DNA of 9,658 nucleotides. Source: a virus. Its lineage: Duplodnaviria > Heunggongvirae > Uroviricota > Caudoviricetes. The stretch lies in IMG/VR virus record IMGVR_UViG_2695420589_000013, one strand, 5' to 3'. Below, in pieces: positions 163 to 9,658 of this stretch. The position numbers and the translations under genes are program-made. The notes under the pieces were generated by a model. The model ran no database searches. It had not been told where the DNA came from and saw only the letters and a program-made list of their open reading frames with translations. Every line of letters starts with the position of its first letter. The first letter of the stretch is position 1.

Positions 163-540
163 TCAAATCCCCAGTGAAGTCACCATTGTCCTGAGAACTT
201 GCAGAACGTCATGATCATAACTTCCATCCAAACCGCGACGGCGAATTGCTTCTCGTATTACCGGAAGCAGTTCGCTGGAAATCTCGGTGCATATTTCACC
301 TGATAATACGCTTGGCTCAAGTGAGAATATTGGTGAACTTACGGTCTTGGTCTCGACAGTTTCAGAGTCAGTGCCAACATTATAAAGCTCAACGAAAGCG
401 GTCTTGATTTTCCGGGCCAGATCTTTTGCTGGCTCGCTTGCAATATCTTTCCCGATTTCTCGCAGCACAGAATGCAATGTATGAGCTGCTGTTTTCTGTA
501 CATCAGACGGTAAATCTTTAAATTCCATCGTCAGCCTCAT
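163..540 (-). CDS. Hypothetical prophage early-left protein (125 aa; 121 aa if translation starts at the internal ATG at 528, which has a GAGG Shine-Dalgarno)
   Basis: Intact ORF whose ATG at 540-538 overlaps the stop of the upstream small gene (ATGA-type overlap), suggesting coupling. No recognisable catalytic motif. Function unknown. Confidence 0.55.
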   Translation of the reverse strand: MRLTMEFKDLPSDVQKTAAHTLHSVLREIGKDIASEPAKDLARKIKTAFVELYNVGTDSETVETKTVSSPIFSLEPSVLSGEICTEISSELLPVIREAIRRRGLDGSYDHDVLQVLRTMVTSLGI

Positions 541-692
541 CAGTCAGTGTTTCTGGCTAACCAGCAACGCGCGCCAGATTCGGTTTTAAACGTTTTGCTT
601 TTGGTATACGTCATGGCGGTAAACGTTCCATCCTGGTTAGGGAACACGCCGCACACCAGAGATTCGTTGTTGCCAAGATCGATAGTATCCAT
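540..692 (-). CDS. Small prophage protein (50 aa from ATG at 692), possibly YdaF-like
   Basis: ATG at 692-690 is preceded by GAGGT at about 5 nt spacing. The longer 68-aa version starting at 746 has no ribosome-binding site. The position left of the immunity region matches the small genes next to racR in Rac-type prophages; the YdaF resemblance is from memory and not verified. Confidence 0.45.
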   Translation of the reverse strand: MDTIDLGNNESLVCGVFPNQDGTFTAMTYTKSKTFKTESGARCWLARNTD

Positions 693-873
693 GCTGACCT
701 CATTTCCCCTTAACGCCGGGGTGGCGGAACAAAAAACCTGCTGCATAGTTAAAGATTGAACCCTGCCGTCATGTTCTTACGCCTCGGGCTGGCTACTTAA
801 CCCCTGACCACTGTCTGGTAACTCGAAGTATTGCCCTGCATTCTGTGGGGCGGGGTGGGTTGACGCCTGAAAC

Positions 874-914
874 AATAGCATCATTATTTTTTTGATGTAA
901 ATAGCATCGCTATT
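874..914. promoter_or_regulatory. Left operator-like cluster: two copies of a 15-bp imperfect palindrome AATAGCATCNNTATT (874-888 and 900-914)
   Basis: Seen directly: aatagcatcattatt (874-888) and aatagcatcgctatt (900-914), centres 26 bp apart. The same motif recurs at 2011-2025. TTGACG at 860-865 and promoter-like hexamers on the minus strand overlap the sites. Confidence 0.5.
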
Positions 915-928
915 GTTTTTTGTTGGGG

Positions 929-954
929 CAAGAAAAAACCACCCTAAGGTGGTT
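929..954 (-). terminator. Rho-independent terminator closing the leftward regulator-antitoxin-toxin operon
   Basis: Perfect 7-bp stem (937-943 aaccacc / 948-954 ggtggtt) with a 4-nt loop. On the plus strand it is preceded by an A-run at 931-937, which is a U-tract after the hairpin in the minus-strand transcript. It lies 17 bp past the toxin stop at 971. Confidence 0.55.
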
Positions 955-970
955 CTGTCGGCGGGAATAA

Positions 971-1261
971 TTAACTGTTTTTGCCTGGATACTGTCTTCG
1001 AGAATGCACAATATTTACTACTTCTATGCTTGATGCTGTTACTCGGTAAAGGATGATGTAGTTAGGATGAGTTACAATTTCACGAAGACCAAGAACTCGC
1101 TCGCTTGGAGGATACAGGTAAGGATGCTCTGTGAGCGGCAAAACGGATGTTTCAATTCGAATTTTCATTCTGCGTGCTGCCGCGGGATTTTCTTTAGCTA
1201 TGTAGGCTACGATCTGGCGCAAATCATCACGAGCAGATGGTAGCCATAAAACGGGTAACAT
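971..1261 (-). CDS. parE: Type II toxin, ParE/RelE superfamily (96 aa)
   Basis: Size and conserved C-terminal pattern typical of ParE/RelE toxins (…HPNYIILYRV…IEVVNIVHSRRQYP). The start codon overlaps the upstream antitoxin stop by 1 nt (TAATG at 1263-1259). Confidence 0.8.
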   Translation of the reverse strand: MLPVLWLPSARDDLRQIVAYIAKENPAAARRMKIRIETSVLPLTEHPYLYPPSERVLGLREIVTHPNYIILYRVTASSIEVVNIVHSRRQYPGKNS

Positions 1262-1455
1262 TATTCACCTCTGTGAGTTGCAGCAGCAATTTGGGCAATA
1301 ATTTGTTCCATTTCCGCCATTACCTCATCATGCGGAATCGCCGGGCGGGGATCCGCGAGGCTTGCTGCTACTTTGGCCCGCAGCCATTCGTTGTAACTAT
1401 TTTCTTGCTCAACTGTCTCAAATTCTGAAACCATTGGGGAAAGGACTGTACTCAT
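1261..1455 (-). CDS. paaA: Small acidic antitoxin (64 aa), PaaA-like partner of ParE
   Basis: GAGGAG ribosome-binding site 9 nt upstream of the ATG at 1455. Lies immediately upstream of the ParE gene and overlaps it. Size (about 63 aa) and the regulator-antitoxin-toxin order match the PaaR-PaaA-ParE three-component systems described in E. coli O157 prophages. Assigned from architecture, not alignment. Confidence 0.6.
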   Translation of the reverse strand: MSTVLSPMVSEFETVEQENSYNEWLRAKVAASLADPRPAIPHDEVMAEMEQIIAQIAAATHRGE

Positions 1456-1474
1456 TTTACATATCTCCTCTGAT

Positions 1475-2005
1475 TTAGGCGCGACGGCCTTTTTGTGCAG
1501 CTAACCACCGCGCAACCGTACGATCCATTGATTCTTTTTTATCTTTCATCTCCTGAAGCATGTGTTCTTGATCTTCTTTCGGAAAAGCTCTGAACGTATG
1601 GATTAAATCTCGTTCCATCGGCTCTACGGCAAACGGTAGTTCATCCTCTGTTTGTTCTGTGTCTGCTGGTAATGCGACTATGTTATCTTGCTGTGGTTCT
1701 CGACAATACATCCTTGCAATTTGCAGCAAATCTACCATGTCTGGCCTGATTGACTCAGGGGGAACTTTCAGTAAGCCAGCAAACTTTAGAACAGCCTCAA
1801 GGTTTAGTGGGGTTTGACCATTTAGGTAGTGACTTACCGCCCCTTGTGTTGAAAACCCCATAATTTCCGCCGCACGTTCCTGAGTCAATCCCAACTGAGA
1901 TTTCTTTGCCATCCAGATTTCTTTCAGTCTTCTGGCGGCGTTGAGGTCGGTGTCTGACAATGATTTTCTTTTCATACATCCAATTCTAATAAGATTGCTA
2001 ATCAC
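1475..2005 (-). CDS. paaR: HTH (XRE/cI-type) transcriptional regulator, 176 aa (166 aa if it starts at ATG 1975). Candidate PaaR-like regulator of the toxin-antitoxin operon and/or RacR-like prophage repressor. No S24 peptidase domain
   Basis: N-terminal helix-turn-helix signature (LTQERAAEIMGFSTQGAVSHYLNGQ). Transcribed divergently from the Cro-like gene and followed 19 nt later by the antitoxin gene on the same strand. The C-terminus is acidic and helical with no Ser/Lys autoprotease motif. Confidence 0.75.
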   Translation of the reverse strand: MISNLIRIGCMKRKSLSDTDLNAARRLKEIWMAKKSQLGLTQERAAEIMGFSTQGAVSHYLNGQTPLNLEAVLKFAGLLKVPPESIRPDMVDLLQIARMYCREPQQDNIVALPADTEQTEDELPFAVEPMERDLIHTFRAFPKEDQEHMLQEMKDKKESMDRTVARWLAAQKGRRA

Positions 2006-2010
2006 TTTGA

Positions 2011-2050
2011 AATAGCATCACTATTTACTTTTAAAAATAACAGTGCTATT
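2011..2050. promoter_or_regulatory. Right operator-like cluster in the divergent intergenic region: AATAGCATCACTATT (2011-2025) and related AATAACAGTGCTATT (2036-2050)
   Basis: Same 15-bp palindrome as at 874-914 with similar spacing (centres 25 bp apart). Located between the divergent regulator and Cro-like genes in an AT-rich region where promoters are expected. Confidence 0.5.
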
Positions 2051-2086
2051 AATTATGCATTGGTAACACATCACATAGGGCGGATT

Positions 2087-2350
2087 ATGAATCTTGGAGA
2101 ATATTTGCATCATTTTCATATAACCCAGAGTTCATTTGCTGAGATTGTTGGCGCATCCCAAGGGATGGTCAGCCACGTTATAACGGGGCGTGCAAAACTT
2201 ACAGGAGAAAAAATATTACGTTGGTGTGAAGCAACGGGATGGGTGGTGACCCCACATGAGATTGACAGTAAAACCTACCCCAACCCAACTGACGGCTTGC
2301 CTGCTGAGTTTCAGGCTAACACACAACCATCGGCGGGGGTTGATTCATGA
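2087..2350 (+). CDS. ydaS: Cro-like HTH protein, YdaS family (87 aa from ATG 2087; the ORF track opens at a TTG at 2060)
   Basis: Helix-turn-helix motif (QSSFAEIVGASQGMVSHVITGR). Divergent from the regulator. Stop overlaps the next gene start (ATGA at 2347-2350). Matches the racR-divergent ydaS-ydaT arrangement of Rac prophage. Confidence 0.7.
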   Translation: MNLGEYLHHFHITQSSFAEIVGASQGMVSHVITGRAKLTGEKILRWCEATGWVVTPHEIDSKTYPNPTDGLPAEFQANTQPSAGVDS

Positions 2351-2772
2351 AAATCAAGCATGAACACATCCGCATGGCGATGAAAGCCTGGGCGCATCCG
2401 GACGGTGAAAAAGTTCCGGCAGCTGAAATAACCAGGGTTTATTTCGAACTGGGAATGACGTTTCCGGTTCTGCATAACGACAGCAAGCACAACACGCTTT
2501 ATCTCAACACCCAAAAGATTTTCCGTTGGCTGGATAAAGACACCCCTGACGCTGTTGAAAAAATTCAGGCGTTGTTACCTGCGATCGAAAGGGCAATGCC
2601 ACCTCCGCTGGTGGCTCGAATGCGCAGCCACAGTTCAGCTTATTTTCGGGAACTGGTGGAGACGCATGAACGACTGGTGAGAGACGCTGATGATTTTGTC
2701 GCAGTGGCAATCGCCGGTTTCAATCAGATGAACCGTGGTGGCCCGGCAGGAAATGCTGTGGCAGTACATTGA
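2347..2772 (+). CDS. ydaT: YdaT-like protein (141 aa), the reported toxic partner of the YdaS/YdaT pair
   Basis: Translationally coupled to the Cro-like gene. Size and position match YdaT of Rac prophage (140 aa). Family assignment is from context and memory, not alignment. Confidence 0.6.
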   Translation: MKIKHEHIRMAMKAWAHPDGEKVPAAEITRVYFELGMTFPVLHNDSKHNTLYLNTQKIFRWLDKDTPDAVEKIQALLPAIERAMPPPLVARMRSHSSAYFRELVETHERLVRDADDFVAVAIAGFNQMNRGGPAGNAVAVH

Positions 2773-2843
2773 CTGACAATAGCCATATCGAATCGCTCCC
2801 GGCAACTCGTGAGTAAAAAGATTCGGTATCAGAAGAGGTGAGT

Positions 2844-3920
2844 ATGGCTAACGCCTGGCTCAGATTATGGCATGACATGCCAAATGACCCTAAGTGGCGA
2901 ACAATTGCCAGGGTGTCAGGGCAGCCAATTGCAACAGTGATGGCAGTGTATATCCACCTCCTGGTGAGCGCGTCACGAAATGTCACGCGAGGTCACATTG
3001 ATGTCACGACAGAAGATTTGGCAAGTGCGCTCGACGTGACAGAAGAGGTAATTGATTCAATTTTGCAGACGATGCAGGGGCGGGTACNNNNNNNNNNNNN
3101 NNNNNNNNTACTTGATGGTGATTTAATCACTGGATGGGAAAAACGCCAGGTGCTTAAAGAGGACAACGGCAATATTTCGCAAACCGCAAAATCTCCTGCA
3201 GAGCGCAAGAGGGCGCAGCGAGAGAGGGAAAGAAAGCGGGAACAAAATGGCGATTGTCACGGCGCGTCACGAAATGTCACGCACATGTCACGACGAGTCA
3301 CGACAGATACAGATAAAGATACAGATAAAGAAGATCAAAACACTATGGTCCATGGCGTAAAAAACGCCACGAACCAGGCAGGGGATGTTCAGACCGTCAA
3401 TCCTGGTCAGCCAGCAGGCTCGACACCGGAAGCCGATTCAGCGTATGCGCTGAAAGCCGATTCGGGCGCTGTGCAGCAGGTGATGACCGCAAGGCCGGAG
3501 CAATCACTCCAACTGCAGCAGCCTGAAGCCGATTCCGCCATTCAGCGGGAAGCCGATCGGGTAGCCCCGGAAAACACCGGGCAGCCTGTGGGACGAGTGG
3601 ATTATCCGGATGTGTTCGAACAGGTCTGGCGGGAATACCCGTTGCGTGCCGGGGCAAACCCGAAGAAATCCGCATTCAGTGCCTGGAAGGCCAGATTGCG
3701 CGAGGGGGTGCCACCAGAGACCATGCTGGATGGTGTGAGGCGTTACGCGAGATACCTGGCGGCGACCGGGAAAGCGGGAACGGAATTTGTTCAGCGAGNN
3801 NNNNNNNNNNNNNNNNNNNNNNNNNNNNNNNNNNNNNNNNNNNNNNNNNNNNNNNNNNNNNNNNNNNNNNNNNTTTTGGGCCGGACCGGAATTTTGAAAA
3901 CCCCTGGTTGCTCCCGGTAA
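2844..3920 (+). CDS. Phage replication initiator (YdaU/DUF1376-like, lambda O analogue). Boundaries uncertain because the ORF crosses two N-masked runs; the true stop may lie inside 3799-3873
   Basis: AAGAGG ribosome-binding site before ATG 2844. The N-terminus (MANAWLRLWHDMPNDPKWRTIARVSGQPIATVMAVYIHLL) is typical of DUF1376 replication proteins. Contains internal iteron clusters. Immediately precedes the DnaC-like loader gene. Confidence 0.55.
   Translation: MANAWLRLWHDMPNDPKWRTIARVSGQPIATVMAVYIHLLVSASRNVTRGHIDVTTEDLASALDVTEEVIDSILQTMQGRVXXXXXXXXLDGDLITGWEKRQVLKEDNGNISQTAKSPAERKRAQRERERKREQNGDCHGASRNVTHMSRRVTTDTDKDTDKEDQNTMVHGVKNATNQAGDVQTVNPGQPAGSTPEADSAYALKADSGAVQQVMTARPEQSLQLQQPEADSAIQREADRVAPENTGQPVGRVDYPDVFEQVWREYPLRAGANPKKSAFSAWKARLREGVPPETMLDGVRRYARYLAATGKAGTEFVQRXXXXXXXXXXXXXXXXXXXXXXXXXXLGRTGILKTPGCSR
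2968..3040. repeat. Iteron cluster 1 inside the initiator gene: GTCACG/GTCACA at 2972, 2982, 2992 and 3003 (10-11 bp spacing), plus an inverted copy CGTGAC at 3035-3040
   Basis: Counted directly. The 21-mer gcgcgtcacgaaatgtcacgc (2968-2988) is repeated exactly at 3262-3282. Confidence 0.55.
3088..3108. other. Run of 21 N (masked or unresolved sequence) inside the initiator gene
   Basis: Literal n characters. Length is a multiple of 3 and the reading frame is preserved across it. Confidence 0.99.
3256..3330. repeat. Iteron cluster 2 (putative replication origin): five GTCACG copies at 3256, 3266, 3276, 3287 and 3297 (helical-turn spacing), followed by a perfect tandem 12-bp duplication ATACAGATAAAG x2 (3307-3330)
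   Basis: Counted directly. The arrangement of iterons followed by a more AT-rich segment inside the initiator gene parallels lambda ori within gene O. Confidence 0.55.
3799..3873. other. Run of 75 N (masked or unresolved sequence) at the 3' end of the initiator gene
   Basis: Literal n characters. Length is a multiple of 3. The C-terminus of the initiator and any stop codon are hidden here. Confidence 0.99.
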
Positions 3921-4003
3921 GCGGCACGAACAACCAGCGTTGTGTGAATCATATTTCTGAACCGGATACCGAAATTCCGCCGGGATTCAGGGGGTGATGT
4001 GGC

Positions 4004-4750
4004 ATGAAAAACATTGCGGCAGCCGGGGTTCTTGAACGTATTCACAGACTTGCACCACAGGGGGCGGTTCCACCGTACCGGACGGTGGAGGAGTGGCGGG
4101 AATGGCAACTTGCTGAAGGACGAAAACGCAGCGAGGAGATTAACCGCCAGAATCGCCAGTTGCGGGTGGAAAAAATCCTGAATCGTTCGGGCATCCAGCC
4201 TCTGCACAGCAAATGCTCGTTTGCGAATTATCAGGTGCAGAACGACGGGCAAAAATACGCGCTGAGCCAGGCCAAATCCATAGCTGACGAACTGATGACC
4301 GGGTGCACGAATTTTGTGTTCAGCGGTAAAACCGGCACCGGGAAAAATCACCTTGCAGCGGCGATGGGTAACCGGCTGATGGCGAAGGGGCGCAGCGTGA
4401 TTATCGTCACCGAGTCTGATGTCATGAGCGTGTTGCATGACAGCTACGACAACGGCAAATCCGGTGAAAAATTTTTACAGGAGCTTTGCGGGGTTGATTT
4501 GCTGGTCCTGGATGAAATAGGCATTCAGCGGGAGACGAAAAACGAGCAGGTGGTATTGCACCAGATAATTGATCGCCGGACAGCATCACTGTGCAGTGTC
4601 GGGATGTTAACAAACCTGAATCATGCCGCAATGAGCACGCTTCTTGGTGAGAGGATTATGGACCGCATGACCATGAACGGTTGTCGGTGGGTGACGTTTA
4701 ACTGGGATAGCTGGCGTTCAAATGTCAGCTTTCCGGGAGTTGTGAAGTAA
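4004..4750 (+). CDS. DnaC-like helicase loader / replication protein (IstB-like AAA+ ATPase, 248 aa; lambda P analogue, YdaV-like)
   Basis: Walker A motif (FSGKTGTGKNHLAAA) and Walker B motif (DLLVLDEIG). Size and position after the initiator gene match DnaC-type loaders of lambdoid and Rac prophages. Confidence 0.85.
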   Translation: MKNIAAAGVLERIHRLAPQGAVPPYRTVEEWREWQLAEGRKRSEEINRQNRQLRVEKILNRSGIQPLHSKCSFANYQVQNDGQKYALSQAKSIADELMTGCTNFVFSGKTGTGKNHLAAAMGNRLMAKGRSVIIVTESDVMSVLHDSYDNGKSGEKFLQELCGVDLLVLDEIGIQRETKNEQVVLHQIIDRRTASLCSVGMLTNLNHAAMSTLLGERIMDRMTMNGCRWVTFNWDSWRSNVSFPGVVK

Positions 4751-6563: not shown

Positions 6564-8396
6564 ATGGCCCGCATGTTTGATACATTAGGATTTTACATTA
6601 TGAATGTGCAACATTTTGATTTTTTTACAGATAATGAGTTTTCTAATCTGGAAAGATATCAAACTTGTAAAGCCATGGCCAAAGGTTATGCGGGCAATTA
6701 CAAAACCGGGCAGTCAAGGTTGATGCATGCCCGCTCATACTGCTTCAGCATCGTAGCTGCATATTGGGATACCCTTGCAAAAAAGCAAAAAAGCAGCATT
6801 AAAATGAGGGCAGTACCGCACACTGTTTACATAGAAGACATTCCATGTGATGCACGCGAGCTCGCTGAACGAACAGGTGAGCTTATTGCTCAATTTCCGG
6901 CGGAGGACGCTGGATATCTGATTGGGTCAATTTATACGGTAATGCTGCCATCCGCTTACCGTTCGGAATTGGGGGCTTACTATACCCCCCCACCTTTGGT
7001 AGCGCGTCTCTTGGACCTGGCTGAAAAGTCTGGTGTTGATTTTTCTCATGCATCGGTTATTGATCCTGCGTGTGGTGGCGGTGCATTTTTGGCACCAGTA
7101 GCCATTCGAATGTTAAAAAAAGACAAGGGGTCTTCCCCTGAATGGATGTTGAGGAGAATCAGTCGTCGTTTAAAGGGGATAGAAATCGATCCATTTGCGG
7201 CTTGGATGAGTTTGGTATTGCTCGAATCTGTACTAATGCCACTATGTGTAAAGGTAAAACGTAGATTGCCTGAAGATACAATTATTGTTGCTGATGCGCT
7301 TCAGCAAGATAAATTTTCTGGTTATGATCTTGTGGTAGGGAATCCGCCTTACGGACGTGTCACTCTCGATATTAAAACGAGAGAAAAATATTCTCGTTCG
7401 TTATTTGGTCATGCAAATCTATATGGATTGTTCACCGACTTAGCTGTTCGCATGGTTAAAGAGAAAACAGGAGTTATTGCATTTCTTACGCCAACTTCTT
7501 TTCTTGGTGGGCAGTATTTCACCGCGCTGCGAACCCTTTTGACCGAAAAAACTACTCCGTATGCCCTTGATTTCGTCACTGACAGGGATGGGGTCTTTGA
7601 CGATGTTCTCCAGGAAACAATGTTGACAGCATTCAAGGCGGGAGAACATAAAGTTCGGGCCCAGGTATCCTCACTTGTCCCTAAGGGGTTGAACAAAGCA
7701 AAAATTGAGAAAATAGGTAATGTTGATATAGAAAAAGGTGGAGCAACGTGGCTTTTGCCACGCGTTAAAGATGATGCCTGTTTTCTTAATGTATTAAAAC
7801 AGATGTCTACGCGTTTAGCTGATCTGGGATACTCAGTCTCTACAGGTCAGTTAGTCTGGAATCGATTTAAGTCGCAGTTGCGTACGACGAAAGGAAAAAA
7901 TAGCTACCCATTAGTCTGGGCGGAATCAATAACTTCAGCTGGTTTTCGTTTTAGTGCAGACAGAAAAAATCATGTTCCCTATATCGATATAACCCCACAA
8001 CAGGGTTTCCTTGTGACAAAATCTGAATGTGTGCTTGTTCAGCGGACAACATCGAAGGAACAGGACAGAAGGATTTTAGCGGCAATTTTACCTCAGGGAT
8101 TTATAGATGAAACTGGTGGCGTAGTAGTTGAAAACCATATTAATATTGTATATTCAAACGGATTGTTCTCTGCGGTTCGCCCTGATGTTATTGATATGCT
8201 ACTTAATTCGCATGTTGTCGATCGGGCGTTCAGGTGTATAAGCGGAAGTGTTGCTGTTTCGGCCTATGAATTGAATTCAATCCCGTTGCCTTCTCTGGAG
8301 CAGGTGATGGAGATTCAATCGTTAATTGATGCTGGCGTCCACAGACGGATTATTGAGAGAACTATCGCTGGTTTCTATGGAGTGATGATTGCATGA
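6564..8396 (+). CDS. N6-adenine DNA methyltransferase, gamma class (Eco57I/TaqI-like catalytic domain plus a C-terminal target-recognition region), 610 aa. Start codon uncertain (alternatives at 6600, 6675, 6723)
   Basis: Motif X GAYYTPPP, motif I (AdoMet binding) VIDPACGGGAFL, and motif IV NPPYG (nt about 7338-7355) occur in the gamma-class order X-I-IV. Long C-terminal half consistent with a target-recognition domain. Stop overlaps the downstream gene (ATGA at 8393-8396). Confidence 0.85.
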   Translation: MARMFDTLGFYIMNVQHFDFFTDNEFSNLERYQTCKAMAKGYAGNYKTGQSRLMHARSYCFSIVAAYWDTLAKKQKSSIKMRAVPHTVYIEDIPCDARELAERTGELIAQFPAEDAGYLIGSIYTVMLPSAYRSELGAYYTPPPLVARLLDLAEKSGVDFSHASVIDPACGGGAFLAPVAIRMLKKDKGSSPEWMLRRISRRLKGIEIDPFAAWMSLVLLESVLMPLCVKVKRRLPEDTIIVADALQQDKFSGYDLVVGNPPYGRVTLDIKTREKYSRSLFGHANLYGLFTDLAVRMVKEKTGVIAFLTPTSFLGGQYFTALRTLLTEKTTPYALDFVTDRDGVFDDVLQETMLTAFKAGEHKVRAQVSSLVPKGLNKAKIEKIGNVDIEKGGATWLLPRVKDDACFLNVLKQMSTRLADLGYSVSTGQLVWNRFKSQLRTTKGKNSYPLVWAESITSAGFRFSADRKNHVPYIDITPQQGFLVTKSECVLVQRTTSKEQDRRILAAILPQGFIDETGGVVVENHINIVYSNGLFSAVRPDVIDMLLNSHVVDRAFRCISGSVAVSAYELNSIPLPSLEQVMEIQSLIDAGVHRRIIERTIAGFYGVMIA

Positions 8397-9475
8397 ATCT
8401 GCCTGTTGTTCCCCCATTGAATGTTATCCGGGAAAGATTACAATTAATTTTCCCTGAAGGGACTGAGAATCGTGGATATTTAATTCGGGAAATAGCTGCA
8501 AAAACAATTTTTGTCATGTTTTATGCTGGTGCGGTTGAGGGGCTGGGGCGATGGATAAGGCCCAGCCAGGTTGTAAGTATGGGAGATTCGCAGGCTGCTC
8601 TTACTGATGATGCGTCCAGAGAAAGCTGGGTAAAGATGACTTTCTCTAAACAAAAGATAAGGCCTGCTGATGCATGGTATGCGGAAAATACGCGTGAGCC
8701 AATACGTGATGAAACTATAAAAAATGGCCTAATACCTTGCAATGCAATTGTTGAGCGTAAAGGTATACCCACCACATCCTCTCGTCCTCGTTACAGTTTG
8801 AATCGCTCTTTTGCAGCACTCTTTGATGCCGGGCTTGAAGGAGATTCGCTGCTGAGTGCAATAAGTTCCTGGCAAGAAAATCATTTGAACAAAGCCGCTC
8901 TTGCTAGGTTGCGTTTATTGAAATCAGGGGCAGTGATTGCTGCTGATGCCGTAGTCGTCACTTTCCCAAATGGAGAGAAGAGAACTTTAGCTCCGGGCCC
9001 GTCAAGTACAATAGCTAAGGCCGTCATCGAAGTTTTTGCTCCTAATTTTCTTAAGAATCCAACTGTGCTCTGGTTGTCTGAATCCGGGAATAAAGTTGTT
9101 GCTCAGGATGATGTATTGGCAAAAGCATTGGGGCTGAATATTGATGCCTCAAAAGCACTTCCAGATATTATTTTGATTGATTTGGGAGAGGACCGAACGG
9201 GTTCGGACATGCTTGTAGTTTTCACTGAAGTAGTTGCGACAGATGGGCCTATAAACAGGGAACGAAAAGTTACTCTCACTCATTTGGCTATTGACGCTGG
9301 GTTCAGCGAGAAAAATCTTGCATTCCTTACGGCATTTATGGACAGAAGTGCTCTGCCTTTTAAAAAGGCAATACCAGAATTGGCGTGGGGATCTTATGCA
9401 TGGTTTGCTTCTGAACCGGAGCACTTAATTGATCTTCGGGATGGTTATCCGGTAAAGATCAGCCAGAGAAAATGA
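8393..9475 (+). CDS. Methyltransferase-coupled partner protein, 360 aa. Putative restriction endonuclease, possibly BsuBI/PstI-like. Function not provable from sequence alone
   Basis: Translationally coupled to the methyltransferase by a 4-bp overlap. Same low-GC composition. Size is typical of Type II restriction subunits. No canonical PD-(D/E)xK, HNH or GIY-YIG motif identified by eye. The BsuBI/PstI family guess is from recalled gene-neighbourhood patterns only. Confidence 0.55.
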   Translation: MNLPVVPPLNVIRERLQLIFPEGTENRGYLIREIAAKTIFVMFYAGAVEGLGRWIRPSQVVSMGDSQAALTDDASRESWVKMTFSKQKIRPADAWYAENTREPIRDETIKNGLIPCNAIVERKGIPTTSSRPRYSLNRSFAALFDAGLEGDSLLSAISSWQENHLNKAALARLRLLKSGAVIAADAVVVTFPNGEKRTLAPGPSSTIAKAVIEVFAPNFLKNPTVLWLSESGNKVVAQDDVLAKALGLNIDASKALPDIILIDLGEDRTGSDMLVVFTEVVATDGPINRERKVTLTHLAIDAGFSEKNLAFLTAFMDRSALPFKKAIPELAWGSYAWFASEPEHLIDLRDGYPVKISQRK

Positions 9476-9627
9476 CCAAAGTTTGATATCCGCCACGCCC
9501 TGAAGGATGGGGGTTTTACGGTGCACTGGATAAAAAATCGGTTTCATAGATTTGCCCACCGTGGTATACGCCTGCGATAAAAACTTTATTGTCATCAACG
9601 GCAAAAGCAATAATTGTTCTGTGGCGG

Positions 9628-9658
9628 GGTGATGCTGCCAACTTACTGATTTAGTGTA
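9628..9658 (+). mobile_element. Partial IS1 terminus: first 31 bp of an IS1 copy, starting with its terminal inverted repeat
   Basis: GGTGATGCTGCCAACTTACTGATTTAGTGTA matches the IS1 left end from memory. Same orientation as the IS1 fragment at 1-30. Confidence 0.75.

Follow-up and report, generated by a model that had tools for sequence, protein, structure and literature searches.

A regulator with a lambda cI-like DNA-binding domain and a PaaR-type C-terminal domain as the probable repressor of a lambdoid prophage carrying a PaaA-ParE toxin-antitoxin pair

Does the regulator encoded ahead of the ParE toxin-antitoxin (TA) pair in this DNA serve the pair alone, or is it also the repressor that maintains a prophage? 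For CP-933P it has been published, and tested, that a PaaR-type regulator acts as repressor of the prophage while ParE and its antitoxin stand where lambda has rexAB, and the earlier note on this sequence had proposed the same double role here. The window, by which is meant the whole stretch of 9,658 nucleotides that was analysed, probably contains the immunity region of a lambdoid prophage of the Qin/CP-933P type from Shigella sonnei or E. coli, and this is the overall explanation favoured here. About 9.7 kb of the prophage, which may be cryptic, are visible.

Gene order and the toxin-antitoxin pair

The genes of the region are the following.

540-746, minus strand: ydfA-like gene (Pfam DUF1391, 3.3e-28), the first one read from the PL-like promoter
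971-1261, minus strand: ParE-family toxin, 96 aa (Pfam ParE_toxin, PF05016, 1.8e-17; PDB ParE2, 5cw7_B)
1261-1455, minus strand: PaaA-family antitoxin, 64 aa (Pfam PaaA2, PF21217, 3e-23; NCBIfam NF050103, 3.3e-27)
1475-1975, minus strand: regulator and probable repressor, 166 aa, with a lambda cI-like N-terminal domain (NTD, roughly residues 1-90), an acidic linker that is disordered (92-111) and a helical C-terminal domain of PaaR/DicA type (CTD, 119-165)
2087-2350, plus strand: Cro-like HTH protein at the YdaS position, 87 aa (phrog_35 transcriptional repressor, 8e-17)
2347-2772, plus strand: YdaT, a CII-analogue activator, 141 aa (Pfam YdaT_toxin, 5e-9; phrog_163 CII-like activator, 3e-40)

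In the list of open reading frames (ORFs) the minus-strand genes follow one another in the order regulator, antitoxin and toxin, before a terminator at 930-956. Regulator and antitoxin are separated by 19 nt (1456-1474), while the antitoxin stop codon and the toxin ATG overlap by 1 nt at base 1261. This succession, from the regulator through the 19-nt gap, the 64-aa antitoxin and the 1-nt overlap to ParE and the terminator, had been described in the earlier note and is borne out by the ORFs and by RNA folding. The three genes lie on the same strand with tight spacing and thus display the layout of a PaaR-PaaA-ParE operon. They are predicted to form one operon, running from a PRM-like promoter to the intrinsic terminator and giving a single transcript repressed by the regulator. 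The proposed likeness to the PaaR-PaaA-ParE architecture holds for the gene order, the toxin and the antitoxin, but in the regulator it is confined to the CTD.

The 96-aa protein was aligned to ParE/RelE toxins, as had been suggested, and matches Pfam ParE_toxin with 64.1 bits (cut-off 23), residues 4-91 covering profile positions 1-89 of 89. It also matches NCBIfam RelE_StbE (29.3, cut-off 27.9), and residues 1-93 match the ParE2 structure 5cw7_B with an E-value of 6.7e-37, the identity to ParE2 being 67% over 92 aa. By sequence it is a ParE toxin of the RelE/ParE superfamily, for which toxicity and neutralisation by the antitoxin are predicted. Similarly, the alignment check on the 64-aa protein placed it in the PaaA2 family, with 81.9 bits to the Pfam PaaA2 toxin-binding motif (cut-off 27), an E-value of 1.4e-23 to PaaA2 in PDB 3zbe and 75% identity to PaaA2. 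Pfam and NCBIfam gave no HTH, RHH or AbrB family for the antitoxin at E up to 0.1, which leaves it without a DNA-binding domain of its own.

On the opposite strand the Cro-like gene most probably starts at ATG 2087, giving 87 aa, and not at TTG 2060; homologues are annotated with the same 264 nt. Its product reaches 20.5 bits with Pfam HTH_3, which is under the cut-off. YdaT is 77% identical to its counterpart in L004, a locus of PaaR2 type, 81% to that in L003 and 87% to that in L002. Scans of the window against Rfam and for tRNAs gave no matches. A PstI-type restriction-modification (R-M) cassette also lies inside the window, and a second ParE gene, truncated, is found at its right end.

Start codon and domains of the regulator

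The longest regulator ORF, 1475-2005 on the minus strand, begins with GTG and encodes 176 aa, the length given in the earlier note. The start is most likely ATG 1975, and the length is corrected here to 166 aa, as annotated for homologues in RefSeq. ATG 1975 is invariant among relatives. GTG 2005 was rejected as the start because it is replaced by GAG in a sister clade of 78-80% identity and because it would leave no room for the promoter. A conserved -10-like hexamer, TAGAAT, ends 8 nt before ATG 1975 and therefore suggests that the regulator mRNA is probably leaderless; both paaR2 and cI offer a precedent (PMC8630535).

The NTD of the regulator matches the NTD of lambda cI in sequence with an E-value of 2.5e-9, and the structure model superposes on it with a TM-score of 0.81-0.93, an rmsd of 1.1-2.0 A and an identity of 37-40%. 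The basic N-terminal arm of lambda cI, STKKK, has its counterpart in MKRKS, and lambda cI residues E34 and D38 align with E33 and E37, acidic in both proteins. By sequence and model comparison the NTD is a true homologue of the lambda cI NTD. The CTD is of a different kind. In the model, residues 119-165 form one helix followed by one long helix, and no Peptidase_S24 match was found in Pfam at E up to 0.1. The comparison thus sets the regulator outside the lambda cI/LexA autocleaving family; since an S24/LexA-type CTD is lacking, RecA-mediated autocleavage is not expected. The last 44-64 residues align instead with PaaR proteins (E 4e-15 and 6e-23), with 52% identity to PaaR2 in 44 aligned residues and 56% identity to the O157:H7 paralogue in 64, whereas the NTD cannot be aligned with theirs. 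The CTD also matches positions 74-130 of the 135 of the DicA model. A search of the phage collection gave no near copy of the regulator, the top match being lambda cI with 31%, and a scan of genome contigs with the regulator found no relative.

Operators, promoters and terminator

The control sites predicted around the operon are the following; palindromes carry no strand.

872-901, minus strand: PL-like sigma-70 promoter, -35 TTTACA (901-896), TG, -10 TATTGT (877-872), from a consensus scan; both OL sites overlap it
874-888: OL operator-like palindrome AATAGCATCATTATT, from a pattern search; half-sites conserved and centre variable across loci
900-914: OL operator-like palindrome AATAGCATCGCTATT, from a pattern search and conservation
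930-956, minus strand: intrinsic terminator (hairpin 956-935 and U-run) at the end of the regulator-antitoxin-toxin operon
1983-2011, minus strand: PRM-like promoter, -35 TTCAAA (2011-2006), -10 TAGAAT (1988-1983), from a consensus scan
2011-2025: OR operator-like palindrome AATAGCATCACTATT, centred at about -43 relative to the presumed start of PRM
2024-2052, plus strand: presumed PR, -35 TTTACT (2024-2029), 17-nt spacer, -10 TATTAA (2047-2052), identified by eye
2036-2050: OR operator-like palindrome AATAACAGTGCTATT; shares bases with the -10 hexamer of the presumed PR
2340-2357: predicted primary site of YdaT, TTGATT-N6-AATCAA (OM site of the PRE analogue), at the cro/ydaT junction; one exact match in the window

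The predicted operator is a 15-bp palindrome, AATAGC-N3-GCTATT, present as two pairs (874-914 and 2011-2050) that lie over conserved promoter-like hexamers. A search with AATAGNNNNNCTATT at no more than one mismatch returned these four sites as its sole matches in the window, against 0.24 expected by chance, and four were reached in 0 of 200 shuffles. Across 18 variants of OR and about 29 of OL, half-sites and promoter hexamers are kept and the variation falls on the central 3 bp. [quoted passage not shown] Each cluster has two clear operators. A third, ATTAGCAATCTTATT, over PRM at about 1990-2004, matches at 10 of 15 positions and is not claimed because the palindrome is not conserved, its left half reading ATTAAT in the sister clade.

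The promoter scan of the window gave 4 matches against 3.0 expected from shuffles, a number that by itself is not above chance. Both hexamers of the PRM-like promoter are invariant (18 of 18 distinct OR variants), and those of the PL-like promoter are kept in the window-type OL variants. The consensus scanner for promoters and terminators called neither PR nor the operon terminator; the presumed PR has the same layout as PL and is conserved in 18 of 18 OR variants. In the folded RNA of 972-920 (minus strand) a 9-bp hairpin precedes a U-rich run (-15.1 kcal/mol, z -2.84), 3 of 200 shuffles folding equally well, and every window-type locus keeps the ACCACC..GGTGG hairpin and the T-run. For the PL leader (747-866, minus strand), which is highly conserved, the predicted fold is not better than that of shuffles (z +1.04), and therefore no RNA element is proposed there.

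Related prophages and the probable role of the regulator

The closest characterised system is paaR2-paaA2-parE2/ydaS-ydaT of the cryptic prophage CP-933P in E. coli O157:H7, in which PaaR2, besides regulating the TA pair, is the analogue of cI, YdaS of Cro and YdaT of CII, with operators at OR and OL, bistability and addiction (Jurenas 2021, PMC8630535). PaaR2 represses both PR and PL, and DNA binding, the leaderless start and post-segregational killing were demonstrated by experiment, while ParE2 activity was not detected in either transcriptional state (PMC8630535). The motif and position of the YdaT site were footprinted in the same prophage (Prolic-Kalinsek 2023, PMC9986795), and its TTGATT-N6-AATCAA recurs here exactly. 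Strands and order agree, ydfA-parE-paaA-regulator facing cro-like-ydaT-replication genes, and toxin, antitoxin and YdaT are 67%, 75% and 77% identical. Operators occur at OR and OL in both, the intergenic region is of similar length at about 100 bp (111 bp against 97 bp), both regulators are without S24, and the repressor start is probably leaderless here too. In contrast, the regulator NTD cannot be aligned with that of PaaR2, its homologue being the NTD of lambda cI instead; the regulator has 166 aa against 123 aa and includes a disordered acidic linker of about 20 residues. The Cro-like proteins are not alignable, and two clear 15-bp operators per cluster stand against four 18-bp GTTTAGTAA-type palindromes in CP-933P. 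With a different NTD, different operators and a different Cro, the immunity specificity therefore differs from that of CP-933P, to which this prophage would be a heteroimmune relative.

The closest TA pair (toxin 86%, antitoxin 77% identical) belongs to the second O157:H7 paralogue, L003 of strain ATCC 43894. Its DNA is homologous to the window over 549-1602 and 2276-2770, and in the regulator CTD the identity reaches 56% over 64 aa, yet the NTD is another one (133-aa regulator), the operators are ACAATAAAAAACTGT and Cro is merely 36% identical. L003 is presumably paaR1-paaA1-parE1 of CP-933M; this assignment is by inference, since no paper detailing the paralogue paaR1/CP-933M was found in the open literature. 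As in lambda cI-rexA-rexB, the repressor gene comes first in a leftward operon and is followed by passenger genes and a terminator before PL, with palindromic operators at OR and OL, one of them centred near -43 of the PRM-like promoter. Unlike in lambda, the regulator has no S24/LexA-type CTD, the passengers are a ParE TA pair and not RexAB, OL and OR lie 1.1 kb apart, and Cro and CII are replaced by the unrelated YdaS-position and YdaT proteins. DicA of the Qin prophage of E. coli K-12 shares the CTD and the leftward neighbourhood (ydfA, ydfB, ydfC, dicB) but differs in its NTD; to our knowledge, the annotation of Qin shows no TA genes from dicA to ydfA.

A scan of the viral contig collection with the regulator gave 51 related loci. 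All of them (51/51) have the order regulator-antitoxin-toxin with divergent cro and ydaT, and all three ORFs are intact. The DUF1391 gene, which also adjoins annotated E. coli loci, neighbours the module in every related locus except L027, L050 and L051; the last two have tandem regulators, a PaaR2-like one beside cro and a PaaR1-like one directly before the TA pair. Three immunity types were distinguished, each with its own repeat common to OL and OR, and as a positive control the comparison of repeats in the PaaR2 type recovered the published footprinted consensus GTTTAGT..ACTAAAC. The DNA mosaic breaks over 1603-2275 and around 863-990, that is, in the NTD, OR, cro and OL parts, with a recombination junction at about 1602, inside the coding sequence of the regulator. 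Between prophages, NTD, cro, OR and OL are thus exchanged as a set, while the regulator CTD, PaaA and ParE stay as a block.

For this variant, gene content, homology, operator statistics, conservation and co-variation were computed, and the functional steps that we infer are as follows. Repressor dimers would bind the 15-bp operators through the lambda cI-like NTD, at the OR pair between the repressor and Cro-like genes and at the OL pair 1.1 kb away over the promoter facing ydfA. With the operators occupied, both early operons, the rightward one (cro-ydaT-replication) and the leftward one, would be silenced, and the repressor promoter itself could be stimulated from the site centred near -43. 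Oligomerisation and cooperativity between OL and OR presumably come from the short helical CTD, which PaaR1, PaaR2 and DicA have as well. YdaT acting at 2340-2357 would drive establishment transcription of the operon. The TA pair would be transcribed solely together with the repressor, so that loss or replacement of the region would stop the resupply of labile antitoxin and free ParE, which would make the module addictive. A further idea, which we hold to be unlikely, is that the shared CTD docks PaaA-ParE on the repressor oligomer; TA stoichiometry would then co-repress the lysis-lysogeny switch, and the pair could police immunity swaps with any DNA-binding domain.

Beyond annotation the significance of the locus is small. 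What is added to the published system is a heteroimmune member with a recognisable DNA-binding domain of lambda cI type, PaaR2 having no sequence similarity to cI, together with a clean predicted operator and, from the comparison of loci, evidence for joint movement of the repressor CTD with the TA genes while NTD, Cro and operators are exchanged. The loci offer a natural domain-swap set for the role of the PaaR/DicA CTD in repression and TA control.

The regulator might be a dedicated transcription factor of the TA pair, with immunity provided by another repressor. PaaR was initially described as the TA regulator (Hallez 2010), and the tandem regulators of L050 and L051 indicate that each role can have a gene of its own. 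That division is highly improbable for the present locus: no second HTH gene lies between ydfA and cro in the window, operator palindromes also cover the PL-like promoter 1.1 kb away and outside the TA operon, the NTD is homologous to that of lambda cI and is swapped jointly with cro, OR and OL, and PaaR2 represses PR and PL (PMC8630535). The proposal that the regulator doubles as prophage repressor and couples lysogeny to the TA pair is thus supported by the cI-like NTD, the predicted operators and the CP-933P experiments (PMC8630535).

The earlier note had also offered abortive infection as a function of the pair. Several TA families act as phage defences, the pair occupies the rexAB position of the repressor operon and the R-M cassette in the window is another defence system, all of which would suit a mainly rexAB-like exclusion of superinfecting phages in place of addiction. 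We nevertheless regard such a function as quite improbable and this part of the proposal as unsupported, PADLOC having given no match for toxin, antitoxin or regulator at E up to 0.001; the CP-933P homologue acts by post-segregational killing, and no phage phenotype was reported for it (PMC8630535). Least probable of all is a module in decay, left over from a cryptic prophage and without function. CP-933P and most lambdoid prophages of O157 are defective, and the truncated second ParE gene would fit such decay, but in 51 of 51 loci, from lineages with regulators diverged to 77-80% identity, all three ORFs are found intact and collinear, and the variation of neighbouring bases spares the operator half-sites and the promoter hexamers. 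Furthermore, the one phage with a related ParE in the phage collection, Evi, carries a module of PaaR2 type in a 40-kb record.

Predicted leftward operon and its products

The earlier note placed a regulator, an antitoxin, a ParE toxin and a terminator in leftward order, and the ORF list, the sequence and the hairpin fold agree on this arrangement.

971-1261, minus strand: toxin ORF, 96 aa (ORF list and sequence)
1261-1455, minus strand: antitoxin ORF, 64 aa (ORF list and sequence)

In the sequence, the antitoxin and toxin ORFs overlap by one base (TAATG) on the minus strand, while the ORF list and sequence leave a 19-nt gap between the antitoxin ORF and the helix-turn-helix (HTH) regulator ORF, which ends at 1475 on the same strand. 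RNA folding locates a terminator-like 9-bp hairpin (956-935) with a U-rich run after it, 14 nt past the toxin stop, with a fold of -15.1 kcal/mol and a z of -2.84 against shuffles. The HTH gene is present as described, although its proposed length of 176 aa most probably does not stand. The corresponding GTG start at 2005 adjoins the operator and is GAG in a sister clade, and the start was placed at ATG 1975, which is invariant among the compared loci, unlike GTG 2005, and from whose equivalent the homologues are annotated in RefSeq as 166-aa proteins. The Cro-like gene most probably starts at ATG 2087 (87 aa).

The identities proposed for the two smaller proteins are confirmed. The 96-aa protein is a ParE toxin: its match to Pfam ParE_toxin is full-length (64 bits against a cut-off of 23), and it also hits the solved structure of ParE2 from E. 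coli O157:H7 (E 6.7e-37). It shares 67% identity with ParE2 and 86% with the second O157:H7 paralogue. The 64-aa protein is a PaaA antitoxin (Pfam PaaA2, 82 bits, cut-off 27; PaaA2 structures, 1.4e-23) and is devoid of a DNA-binding domain.

Residues 1 to about 90 of the regulator are homologous to the lambda cI N-terminal domain (NTD; E 2.5e-9), and when the AlphaFold model (18 relatives) is superimposed on cI NTD structures, TM is 0.81-0.93, rmsd 1.1-2.0 Å and identity 37-40%. Residues 92-111 are predicted to be disordered and residues 119-165 comprise one short and one long helix. Alignment with PaaR2 (52% over 44 aa) and with the other O157 regulator, of locus L003 (56% over 64 aa), is confined to this C-terminal part, which also aligns with the DicA model over the latter's C-terminal half; a Pfam profile search found no S24 peptidase domain in the regulator. 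Lambda positive-control residues E34 and D38 align with E33 and E37, which are their putative counterparts. Relatives of 240-255 aa (P0013-P0023) combine the window-type cI-like NTD, a complete second PaaR1-type HTH and the common C-terminal domain (CTD). The window regulator corresponds to this form with precisely the second HTH missing, seen as a 79-column gap in the alignment; the family is strikingly modular.

Predicted operators, promoters and YdaT site

The two operator-like clusters pointed out previously, OL and OR, both resolve into copies of one 15-bp palindrome, AATAGC-N3-GCTATT. Matches with at most one mismatch number four in the 9.7-kb window, all within the two clusters, where 0.24 are expected by chance and none of 200 shuffles reaches four. 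Operator and promoter names follow lambda by analogy.

874-888 and 900-914: palindrome copies, OL
2011-2025 and 2036-2050: palindrome copies, OR
2011-2006 (-35 TTCAAA) and 1988-1983 (-10 TAGAAT), minus strand: PRM-like promoter directly upstream of the regulator (promoter scan)
901-896 (TTTACA) and 877-872 (TATTGT), minus strand: PL-like promoter reading into the DUF1391/ydfA gene (promoter scan)
2024-2029 (TTTACT) and 2047-2052 (TATTAA), plus strand: presumed PR, laid out as the PL-like promoter (by eye)

Promoter-like matches in the window are not enriched over shuffles, and support for these sites lies in their conservation across loci; the presumed PR is absent from the scanner calls on the window. 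Across the window-type set (distinct sequences: 18 for OR, about 29 for OL) the half-sites AATAG(C)/(G)CTATT are conserved, as are the promoter hexamers and the terminator hairpin, and the three central operator bases are free to vary. Fixed half-sites around a variable centre are what would be expected of a dimeric HTH operator. The PL-like promoter is overlapped by both OL sites. The operator at 2011-2025 adjoins the PRM-like -35 and is centred ~43 bp upstream of the presumed PRM start, which is the geometry of lambda cI at OR2. Since the ATG lies only 8 nt past the -10, the regulator mRNA would be leaderless, a property demonstrated for lambda cI and paaR2 (PMC8630535). Between the PL-like promoter and ydfA, the leader (703-862) is 90-96% identical across immunity types, above the neighbouring toxin-antitoxin (TA) genes; its RNA folding is not unusual (z +1.04) and it has no Rfam match.

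Rightward, the genes encode the Cro-like HTH protein, YdaT and, further right, replication proteins. YdaT has hits to Pfam YdaT and, in PHROG, to the 'CII-like activator' family, and it shares 77% identity with its counterpart in L004, the PaaR2-type locus. The YdaT site TTGATT-N6-AATCAA has one exact match in the window, at the cro/ydaT junction (2340-2357), equivalent to its footprinted position in CP-933P (Prolic-Kalinsek et al. 2023, PMC9986795). Runs of N at 3088-3108 (21 bases) and 3799-3873 (75 bases) lie within the O-like replication gene (2838-3920), whose translation is therefore incomplete.

Immunity exchange and the role of the regulator

In the 51 loci collected from IMG/VR viral contigs with the regulator as query, regulator, antitoxin and toxin always share one strand and a divergent YdaT or Cro-like gene is always present (both in 44); the toxin is followed by ydfA in every locus except three. 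Compared with L003 DNA, homology spans 549-1602 (ydfA, both TA genes and some 43 codons at the 3' end of the regulator gene) and returns at 2276, at the cro end, followed by ydaT; against L004 it is additionally interrupted around 863-1013, the OL region. Exchange has thus affected the NTD, OR, most of cro and OL. Every immunity type carries a repeat of its own, common to OL and OR: the window has AATAGC-N3-GCTATT, L003 has ACAATAAAAAACTGT and L004 has GTTTAGT..ACTAAAC. The last is the consensus from PaaR2 and YdaS footprinting (PMC8630535), and its recovery served as positive control for inferring operators from such repeats.

The proposal of a regulator-antitoxin-ParE module in the prophage-repressor position is correct in kind and is a rediscovery of the arrangement already published for the O157:H7 prophage CP-933P. 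There, PaaR2 acts as a functional cI analogue and its mRNA is leaderless (Jurenas et al. 2021, PMC8630535), PaaR2 and the Cro analogue YdaS bind overlapping operators in a 97-bp intergenic region and also the PL/OL analogue, and YdaT activates the PRE analogue; the locus is bistable and the whole region stabilises plasmids by post-segregational killing (PMC8630535). PaaR2 is without an autocleavage motif, mitomycin C gives no response (PMC8630535), and work cited in that paper describes its octamerisation. The window locus is a heteroimmune relative of this known and experimentally characterised kind.

Homology and conservation make it likely that the 166-aa protein acts as prophage repressor at OR and OL, with PaaA and ParE as addictive passengers. 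Dimers of the cI-like NTD would occupy the palindromes and shut PR and PL, probably modulating PRM too, the PaaR/DicA-type CTD would give higher-order oligomerisation, and co-transcription of PaaA and ParE would render the immunity region addictive. A regulator serving the TA pair alone is disfavoured, as the OL sites cover a promoter that is not part of the operon, and NTD, cro and operators are exchanged together. Intact genes and purifying patterns in the 51 loci likewise argue against a dead remnant. That the TA pair forms a rex-like exclusion system is a less likely rival account of the passengers, for which PADLOC gives no match. In the compared loci the CTD is never separated from the TA genes, so that a functional coupling of the CTD to the PaaA-ParE complex is conceivable, at low probability. 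Loci L050 (3821-4625) and L051 carry two regulators with the same CTD in tandem before PaaA/ParE, a PaaR2-like 123-aa protein adjoining cro and a PaaR1-like protein directly before the antitoxin; they may represent an intermediate in which immunity repressor and TA regulator are still separate genes.

Distribution and the right end of the window

Of 5426 E. coli complete genomes, 72 contain the 2-kb core over 80% or more of its length at 81% identity or more, and 842 contain a related TA pair. Shigella sonnei has the exact window regulator among its annotated proteins. A PaaR2-type module is carried by one phage record of 40 kb, phage Evi (L005, LR597642.1); its ParE2-like toxin gene (4001-4276) is unannotated, the upstream PaaR2-like and PaaA2-like genes being annotated.

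Within the early-right region of the prophage lies a complete type II restriction-modification pair (6564-9475, plus strand), comprising a 610-aa N6-adenine methyltransferase (Eco57I/N6_Mtase; PADLOC MTase_II 1.8e-300) and a 360-aa endonuclease of the BsuBI/PstI family; other genes occupy this position in relatives such as locus L001. Beside it, at 9516-9641 on the minus strand, a second RelE/ParE toxin gene is left as a 3' remnant; the gene appears truncated because an in-frame stop lies just upstream. Over 32 aa the remnant shares 84% identity with the C-terminal end of an L001 toxin that has a ParD partner.
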